A DNA stretch of 64,000 bases from a virus (IMGVR_UViG_3300027796_000011:41850-105849), one strand, 5' to 3'. Positions 13,512-13,880 are shown, counted from the stretch's first letter. A program made the numbers and translations. The notes: a model not told the origin generated them from the sequence alone.

Positions 13512-13880
13512 ATGGCAAAGACACTGATGTTCAGCGTAACCAAGGATGATGTGGAGTGGGACACGTATCGCGGGACGGGGCCTGGAGGCCAGCACAGGAA
13601 CAAGACGGAATCGGCAGTACGTTTAACGCACAGACCTTCCGGGGTGGTAGTACAGAGTCAGAGTGATAGAAGCCAGCATACGAACAAGCGTGAGTGTATG
13701 AAGCAGTTGGCAGCCCACCCGAAATTCAAGGCATGGTGCTTACGTCGCAGCATTGAAATGCGGGAGGGGGAGACGTTAGAGCAGAAGGTAGACAAGATGC
13801 TCCATCCCGAGAATCTAAAGATCGAGTTGCTGGACGAAACTACACATAAGTGGGGGGCTGGACATGCAGGTGGGAGATAG
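13512..13880 (+). CDS. GGQ-motif peptidyl-tRNA hydrolase, ArfB/YaeJ (RF-1 domain)-like
   Basis: [43 protein letters not shown] aligns with the ArfB core AGGQHVNKTSTAIHLRFD...QEYRSQELNRE; GGAGG RBS. Confidence 0.7.

Follow-up and report, generated by a model that had tools for sequence, protein, structure and literature searches.

A divergent stand-alone GGQ-domain protein of phage family PHROG 3122, encoded within a lineage-specific paralog array: a candidate for codon-independent ribosome rescue

The stretch of viral DNA analysed here (IMGVR_UViG_3300027796_000011:41850-105849; 64,000 nucleotides, in the following "the window") carries on its + strand, among a series of small paralogous genes, a stand-alone gene for a protein with the Gly-Gly-Gln (GGQ) or RF-1 domain of peptide chain release factors. 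The open reading frame (ORF) begins with ATG, 6 nucleotides (nt) downstream of a GGAGG ribosome-binding site, ends with TAG, and encodes 122 amino acids (aa); at its 3' end, 17 nt are shared with the next gene, whose ATG lies at 13864 (all features are listed in Table 1). The identical 122-aa product was found in independent gene calls on nine public contigs of the same virus, hereafter the source phage. The copy on a contig of a sister phage (L089) is 93% identical in amino acid sequence, and within the first 110 codons the two genes differ by 29 synonymous and 7 nonsynonymous changes; the gene therefore is under purifying selection. A first-pass annotation, made from the sequence alone, had described the 122-aa product by a string of 40 letters, which we located at residues 22-61, and had placed the gene inside a paralog array. 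Both statements were correct, with five paralogs upstream of the gene and three downstream.

The same annotation had named a search with the RF-1 profile as its check, and the lack of a match as grounds for giving up the domain assignment. Since the Pfam RF-1 profile (PF00472) recognised residues 7-69 on profile positions 5-68 with 86.8 bits (E = 1.3e-24; gathering cutoff 35 bits), these grounds do not apply. In an alignment of 55 homologs no variation was seen at G23, G25, G26, Q27, H40, and N58. From these homologs, AlphaFold2 gave a model with a mean predicted local distance difference test score (pLDDT) of 88, which consists of strands (residues 15-19, 35-40, and 45-49), helices (55-68, 70-85, and 89-96), and one hairpin (105-116); the 10-residue block of the GGQ loop has a mean pLDDT of 66, the lowest in the body of the model. 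Compared by Foldseek, the model superposed on the GGQ-region fragment of RF2 (6c4h) with a root-mean-square deviation of 1.5 A over 60 residues at 57% identity, so that the loop geometry expected around the catalytic glutamine is found in the predicted structure as well. The identity of the 122-aa product as an RF-1/GGQ-domain protein is near certain.

In comparisons with NCBIfam models and with the sequences in PDB, the similarity was restricted to domain 3 of the release factors. The NCBIfam models prfB (88.7 bits) and prfA (76.7 bits) matched partially, at cutoffs of 370-423 bits; prfH (TIGR03072, cutoff 166.65 bits) reached 75.9 bits over only profile positions 103-162 of 200, which correspond to the GGQ domain, and ArfB (NF006718, cutoff 100 bits) reached 40.2 bits, its best stretch being residues 7-39 only. 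Matches among PDB sequences were RF2 (1gqe residues 234-294, E = 1.5e-17), PrfH (E = 2e-14), C12orf65 (E = 7e-8), and ArfB chains (E about 7e-3). The full-length RF1/RF2 architecture (domains 1-4 with the PxT/SPF motif) was not recovered: the scores of 74-89 bits came from domain 3 only, and the 122-aa protein has no counterpart of domains 1, 2, and 4 of the release factors. The catalytic core thus is closely similar to domain 3 of RF2 and RF1, including the motifs GGQHxN and SQHxNK, whereas the stop-codon reader (PxT/SPF) and the RF3-interacting domain of these factors are lacking.

An alignment with the GGQ loop and the following helix of both ArfB/YaeJ and the class-I release factors had been claimed at first pass. 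The part concerning class-I release factors holds, while only the GGQ loop aligns with ArfB, which places the protein in another GGQ-domain subfamily. A genuine ArfB/YaeJ orthologue would use a basic C-terminal helix to probe the empty mRNA channel of nonstop ribosomes; ArfB acts by means of a flexible linker and of a basic helix inserted into this channel (PMC6514570). Like ArfB/YaeJ and the mitochondrial ICT1/mL62, the GGQ protein is small, comprises a GGQ domain and a C-terminal extension with no codon-recognition domain, and is proposed to do the same general job, rescue by peptidyl-tRNA hydrolysis; ArfB chains are also among its weak matches. However, neither the 40.2 bits obtained with a model whose cutoff is 100 nor the PDB match of about 7e-3, as compared to 1.5e-17 for RF2, fits an orthologue, and the hallmark tail is replaced: the C-terminal 53 residues (70-122) have a net charge of +1 and are predicted to be folded, with no linker and basic helix. 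We therefore regard the assignment to ArfB/YaeJ as highly improbable.

What stands in place of the ArfB linker and basic helix is predicted to be a confidently folded C-terminal module (residues 70-116), with block-mean pLDDT values of 76-96 over most of its length. Its motifs KFKxW (residues 71-75), V93, and NLKIE (101-105) are kept in the family, and F72, W75, V93, and N101-E105 are each at least 90% conserved in the 55-homolog alignment. The median net charge of this region in the family is 0, and that of the last 25 residues -2. Searched alone, the C-terminal 67 residues found no relative among PDB sequences (best E = 1.7). The protein mtRF-R (C12orf65/MTRFR) is likewise composed of a GGQ domain of the RF1/RF2 type with a helical extension behind it, and the family profile aligns through positions 5-103 with mtRF-R (7a5h_C), the sole solved structure covered near end to end. 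By analogy, the GGQ protein might act on split large subunits that still bear peptidyl-tRNA, a substrate of the type handled in ribosome-associated quality control. We consider this unlikely, as canonical release-factor domain 3 scored above mtRF-R in every comparison made, and in the C-terminal module we detected no homology to the mtRF-R extension and, on searching it alone, no similarity to any solved structure. Neither was an MTRES1-like S4 partner found: the genes abutting six homologs and the flanking paralogs gave no significant match of the MTRES1/RqcP/Hsp15 type. For this last reason the likeness to mtRF-R is taken as an architectural resemblance only.

With the GGQ protein, a phage family that is already known and widely annotated gains a new, divergent member. 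It matched PHROG 3122, "RF-1 domain peptide chain release factor", with E = 1.1e-23 (residues 2-109 on profile positions 20-124 of 136), and the phages of this family encode proteins of the same architecture and length, with a GGQ domain, the KFKxW...NLKIE module, and about 105-135 aa in total. The novelty is therefore smaller than implied at first pass, as members of PHROG 3122 are routinely annotated in phage genomes. Using tblastn, matches were found in 262 records of deposited phages; in 209 of these, the alignment spans 80% or more of the protein. In IMG/VR, relatives of the gene were counted at no fewer than 576 loci. Among the matches listed, the near full-length deposited carriers are Mycobacterium phages, namely Bixzunavirus (about 154 kb; for example, ScottMcG gp204) and the Wildcat-like group (about 79 kb; for example, EniyanLRS gp129), and Tunturiibacter phages such as Tunturi_3/4, with about 38-42% identity over 85-93% of the protein. 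Matches labelled as Listeria, Salmonella, and Acinetobacter "phage" were dropped, since they covered about 50% of the query and lay on full-length prfA/prfB genes or unannotated fragments. After the protein of the sister phage (93%), the next closest sequences are metagenomic, with at most 61% identity, and identity to any deposited phage protein is about 40%. RF-1 domain genes have been counted among the core genes of mycobacterial tRNA arrays (PMC5966550); otherwise, in the literature searched, the family is mentioned in genome announcements, in passing only.

Among cells, the family is sparsely represented. A profile from a 15-sequence alignment, scanned against 185,579 bacterial and archaeal species genomes, gave few near full-length matches (Melioribacteraceae, Cohnella, and others); the version combining the GGQ domain with the C-terminal module therefore is mainly viral. 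Matches in Planctomycetota were many and comprised the GGQ core only. These stand-alone proteins (loci L096-L170, most of them in Planctomycetota), about 170 aa long among the named matches, align with query residues 4-68 or so at 45-62% identity and appear to form a separate cellular family; one Planctomycetes and one Desulfarculaceae member bear the NCBI name "peptide chain release factor-like protein".

The neighbourhoods of 80 IMG/VR loci with a GGQ relative were surveyed over 10 kb on either side, using tblastn for the paralogs, RlaP, PhoH, RtcB, and RNA ligases. At least one tRNA gene was present in 25 of the 80 loci and at least five in 12, a transfer-messenger RNA (tmRNA) in 4, and in 17 loci a tRNA gene lay within 2 kb of the relative. 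Counted per kb, tRNA genes numbered 0.19-0.30 at distances of up to 5 kb from the relatives, as compared to 0.07-0.12 at 5-10 kb; GGQ relatives thus lie near tRNA genes above expectation, with a two- to three-fold density within 5 kb. RtcB was encoded in 3 loci, an Rnl-type ligase in 2, PhoH in 2, and RlaP in none. In mycobacteriophages the GGQ-family gene adjoins replication genes or tRNA arrays, and in EniyanLRS an array with 22 annotated tRNA genes precedes it at a distance of about 1.8 kb. Phage toolkits for RNA repair and ribosome rescue, with RtcB, Rnl, PhoH, and Pth2, have been described (PMC7824862).

These surroundings also bear on a possible partnership with RtcB. In bacteria, PrfH and RtcB2 act in rescue and repair (PMC9304027, PMC6514570), and a PrfH-like GGQ protein would free the peptide from ribosomes in which a ribotoxin has cut rRNA or tRNA, before RtcB re-ligates the ends. 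PrfH (RFH) likewise has a GGQ domain of the RF1/RF2 type, and the conflict-related RNA-repair context is similar. In one related phage (L040), the GGQ homolog (9980..10348) overlaps rtcB (10345..11493) by 4 bp and is translationally coupled to it, as prfH is in the bacterial operon; RtcB is found within 10 kb of the relative in two further loci (L013 and L026), and the source phage itself encodes RtcB. However, the rRNA-recognition domain of PrfH (PrfH residues 2-98 and 180-204) is missing from the GGQ protein, which begins 8 residues before its GGQ-domain match, and the score of 75.9 bits is under the cutoff of 166.65. The first-pass annotation had rightly pointed out that the window also contains RtcB and a ligase, but they are encoded 35 kb (RtcB) and 46 kb (RNA ligase) from the GGQ gene on the opposite strand, with no operon, so that a functional tie is weak in the source genome; nor is it general, RtcB being within 10 kb in only 3 of the 80 related loci. 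The sampled deposited mycobacteriophages with RtcB have genomes of about 56-63 kb or 81-84 kb and are distinct from the carriers of the GGQ family with about 154 kb. Taken together, the 80-locus counts, the tRNA density, the L040 pair, and the two sets of mycobacteriophages indicate that the link to RtcB is occasional and the link to the translation apparatus recurrent, and a PrfH-like role for the GGQ protein of the source phage appears doubtful, with a low probability. In its own right, the L040 pair is a phage equivalent of the prfH-rtcB operon of bacteria, with a GGQ-only protein. In two other loci (L003, 4472..9124; L004, 5699..10351), the GGQ relative comes directly behind two PF09414 RNA ligases, a methyltransferase, and a B12-binding radical SAM gene, and is itself followed by an intein-containing ORF; the stretch of about 4 kb before the relative includes both ligases and the B12-radical-SAM gene, and the whole looks like a compact cluster for RNA repair or RNA modification.

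What distinguishes the source phage from the other phages of PHROG 3122 is the position of its GGQ gene in an array of paralogs that are SH3-like, basic-tailed, and specific to its lineage. The motif H-x-D-[ILV]-R-L-I-R-x-R, intact or degenerate, closes each of the eight paralogs, and paralogs 2-8 are 20-34% identical to the first, with a common N-terminal domain and C-terminal tail. Their layout comprises an SH3/KOW-like beta-barrel, a disordered flexible linker, and the conserved basic tail. The tail as a repeat at the DNA level was considered and rejected; since its codons vary freely at synonymous positions, it is constrained at the level of the protein. No family was assigned to the paralogs by scans with Pfam and PHROG, save one marginal PHROG of unknown function, and the paralog profile, run against 5.8 billion proteins, returned solely the source phage's own genes. 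By tblastn, paralogs were absent near the GGQ relatives in 80 of the 80 other loci. Judged by these searches, the paralogs are an ORFan family limited to the lineage of the source phage, and in the sister phage L089 a paralog is kept 18 nt upstream of the GGQ gene.

Since an intrinsic-terminator-like hairpin follows the PhoH gene and sigma-70-like promoters lie downstream of it, the GGQ gene is most likely part of one transcription unit with the paralogs, apart from PhoH. The promoters are assigned by their position, because the total number of promoter-like sites in the consensus scan was not above chance. One could imagine that the GGQ protein and its co-transcribed paralogs constitute a two-component rescue system, a "split ArfB" or an arrangement like that of ArfA and RF2, in which the basic-tailed paralogs would serve as interchangeable sensors, each for a different stalled or damaged ribosome state, and would recruit or license the GGQ hydrolase, which has no sensor of its own. 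The synteny kept in the sister phage and the constraint on the paralog tails at the protein level are in favor of such a system; nevertheless, with no paralog at any of the 80 other GGQ loci and no homologs outside the phage lineage, we consider it very unlikely.

We propose, with a probability of roughly 0.6, that the GGQ protein is a stop-codon-independent peptidyl-tRNA hydrolase for general ribosome rescue during infection. Of the phage-borne ribosome-rescue factor suggested at first pass, the role in rescue by a codon-independent hydrolase remains the most reasonable reading, and the ArfB identity is given up. In its favor we count the sequence and conservation of the RF2-like domain, the purifying selection, the mainly viral family, the tRNA genes and RNA ligases near relatives, and the RNA-repair genes of the window itself (RtcB, RNA ligase, RlaP, and PhoH). 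In the proposed mechanism, the RF2-like GGQ domain (residues 7-69) would enter the A site on the large subunit to hydrolyse the ester bond of peptidyl-tRNA in the peptidyl-transferase centre of ribosomes stalled during infection, with no codon being read, and would thereby recycle ribosomes and tRNAs for phage protein synthesis. Because the protein has neither a codon reader nor a probe for the mRNA channel, it probably recognises the vacant A site, either through the conserved C-terminal module, a candidate ribosome-binding or state-sensing element, or by slow kinetics. The lack of a channel probe would also allow action on ribosomes stalled on intact mRNA, for example where host nucleases have depleted or cut tRNAs. 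Stalls of this kind, with a vacant A site on intact mRNA, are poorly handled by tmRNA, ArfA, and ArfB. Phages carry tRNAs, RNA ligases, and Pth2, by which translation is kept going under host attack on tRNAs, mRNAs, and rRNA; a release factor consisting of the GGQ domain and its extension only would extend this translation toolkit by the clearing of stuck peptidyl-tRNA.

Codon-independent hydrolysis could also be directed against the host, by premature termination or by early clearing of host nascent chains during takeover. The GGQ protein contains no sensor domain that would limit it to aberrant complexes, and its gene belongs to a unit of small lineage-specific genes behind sigma-70-like promoters, a layout typical of early host-directed functions. 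However, the association of its relatives with tRNA arrays, tmRNA, and RNA ligases points to functions that support translation, and indiscriminate release would strike phage mRNAs too. A function as a weapon in host takeover therefore seems improbable to us.

Several points weigh against general ribosome rescue as the function of the GGQ protein. In the source phage the RNA-repair genes are distant from the GGQ gene, and no tRNA array was found in the 64-kb window. Across the 80 loci and the deposited relatives, no neighbour gene is conserved throughout the GGQ family, and no experimental or biochemical study of any family member was found in the literature searched. According to mutagenesis of YaeJ, ArfB deprived of its tail is reportedly inactive; a GGQ domain with no such tail would therefore need another binding determinant, for which the C-terminal module is a candidate. 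Finally, an unregulated codon-independent release factor could harm translation, and a benefit for the phage is assumed.

With at least 576 viral contigs and more than 200 isolated phages, the family is common, and how a catalytic domain with neither codon reader nor mRNA-channel probe chooses its substrate is a tractable question. The presence of such a gene in a phage will not surprise the specialist; the single gene described here adds a divergent member in an unusual neighbourhood and by itself leaves the overall picture unchanged.

Table 1. Features of the GGQ gene, its surroundings, and other parts of the window (positions counted from the first nucleotide of the window).
Feature	Position	Strand	Basis
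GGQ (RF-1 domain) protein gene, stand-alone, stop codon included	13512..13880	+	ORF list, sequence, PF00472, PHROG 3122
Ribosome-binding site GGAGG	13501..13505	+	Read from upstream sequence
GGQ domain of release-factor domain-3 type, residues 7-69	13530..13718	+	Pfam RF-1 alignment, RF2 matches
Codons GGA GGC CAG, catalytic G25-G26-Q27	13584..13592	+	Read from sequence
Family-specific C-terminal module, residues 70-116 (helices 70-85, 89-96; beta-hairpin 105-116)	13719..13859	+	Alignment, AlphaFold2
Upstream paralogs, five genes (the fourth with two domains)	11394..11690, 12148..12423, 12413..12733, 12730..13227, 13224..13493	+	ORF list, alignment
107-aa ORF within the upstream array, unrelated to the paralogs	11687..12010	+	
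Downstream paralogs, three genes	13864..14196, 14199..14528, 14554..15018	+	ORF list, alignment, public gene calls
Intrinsic-terminator-like hairpin 3' of PhoH, 16-bp stem and T-run	11293..11328	+	
Sigma-70-like promoter TTGACA-17-TAGAAT (11/12) before the first paralog	11339..11367	+	Consensus scan
Second sigma-70-like promoter TTGACA-18-TAGGAT	12085..12114	+	Consensus scan
PhoH-like ATPase, opening the + strand island	10091..11272	+	PF02562, E = 5.1e-44
RlaP-family RNA-repair nucleotidyltransferase	8063..9079	-	PF10127, E = 2.2e-14
ArdA anti-restriction protein	27004..27615	-	
Metallophosphoesterase	33523..34260	-	
RtcB RNA ligase	49136..50242	-	PF01139, E = 2.7e-87
C5 DNA methylase	52381..53739	-	
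ATP-dependent RNA ligase	59798..60703	-	PF09414, E = 6.6e-11

RlaP, PhoH, the metallophosphoesterase, RtcB, and the ATP-dependent RNA ligase make up a dispersed RNA-repair toolkit in the source phage. Among its other annotated genes are those for an HK97-type capsid, a tail tube, an XkdF-type protease, ribonucleotide reductase, ThyX, and dTMP kinase. The capsid is about 45% identical to those of the Stenotrophomonas phage DLP_5 and of Vibrio siphophages, and public contigs of the source phage reach 106 kb; it is probably a siphophage of the Gram-negative type with a genome of about 106 kb. Nucleotides 12000-16000 found no match among deposited phages, and the source phage therefore is without a close sequenced relative.

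A tRNA-like gene at 26041..26137 on the - strand was recognised by Rfam (RF00005, 48.6 bits), with canonical acceptor, D, and T arms. In place of the 13-nt anticodon arm of the model it contains 38 nt, which fold into a pair of small hairpins lacking a 7-nt anticodon loop; ARAGORN did not call the gene. The gene is flanked by an exact direct repeat of 22 nt, TTGACAAACCTGGAAGGATTGA, at 26155..26176 and 26000..26021 (-), which has a promoter-like look and a chance expectation of 0. The product could be a tRNA-like RNA that either contains an intron or serves as a decoy, and is of note given that the same phage encodes RtcB.

The largest ORF of the window (41830..45180, - strand, 1116 aa) had no Pfam match at E <= 0.01. 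Between the genes for the major capsid protein (680..1648) and the tail tube (2615..3559) lies a gene for an HNH endonuclease of 319 aa (1633..2592, - strand), which is probably a homing enzyme that has entered the structural module.
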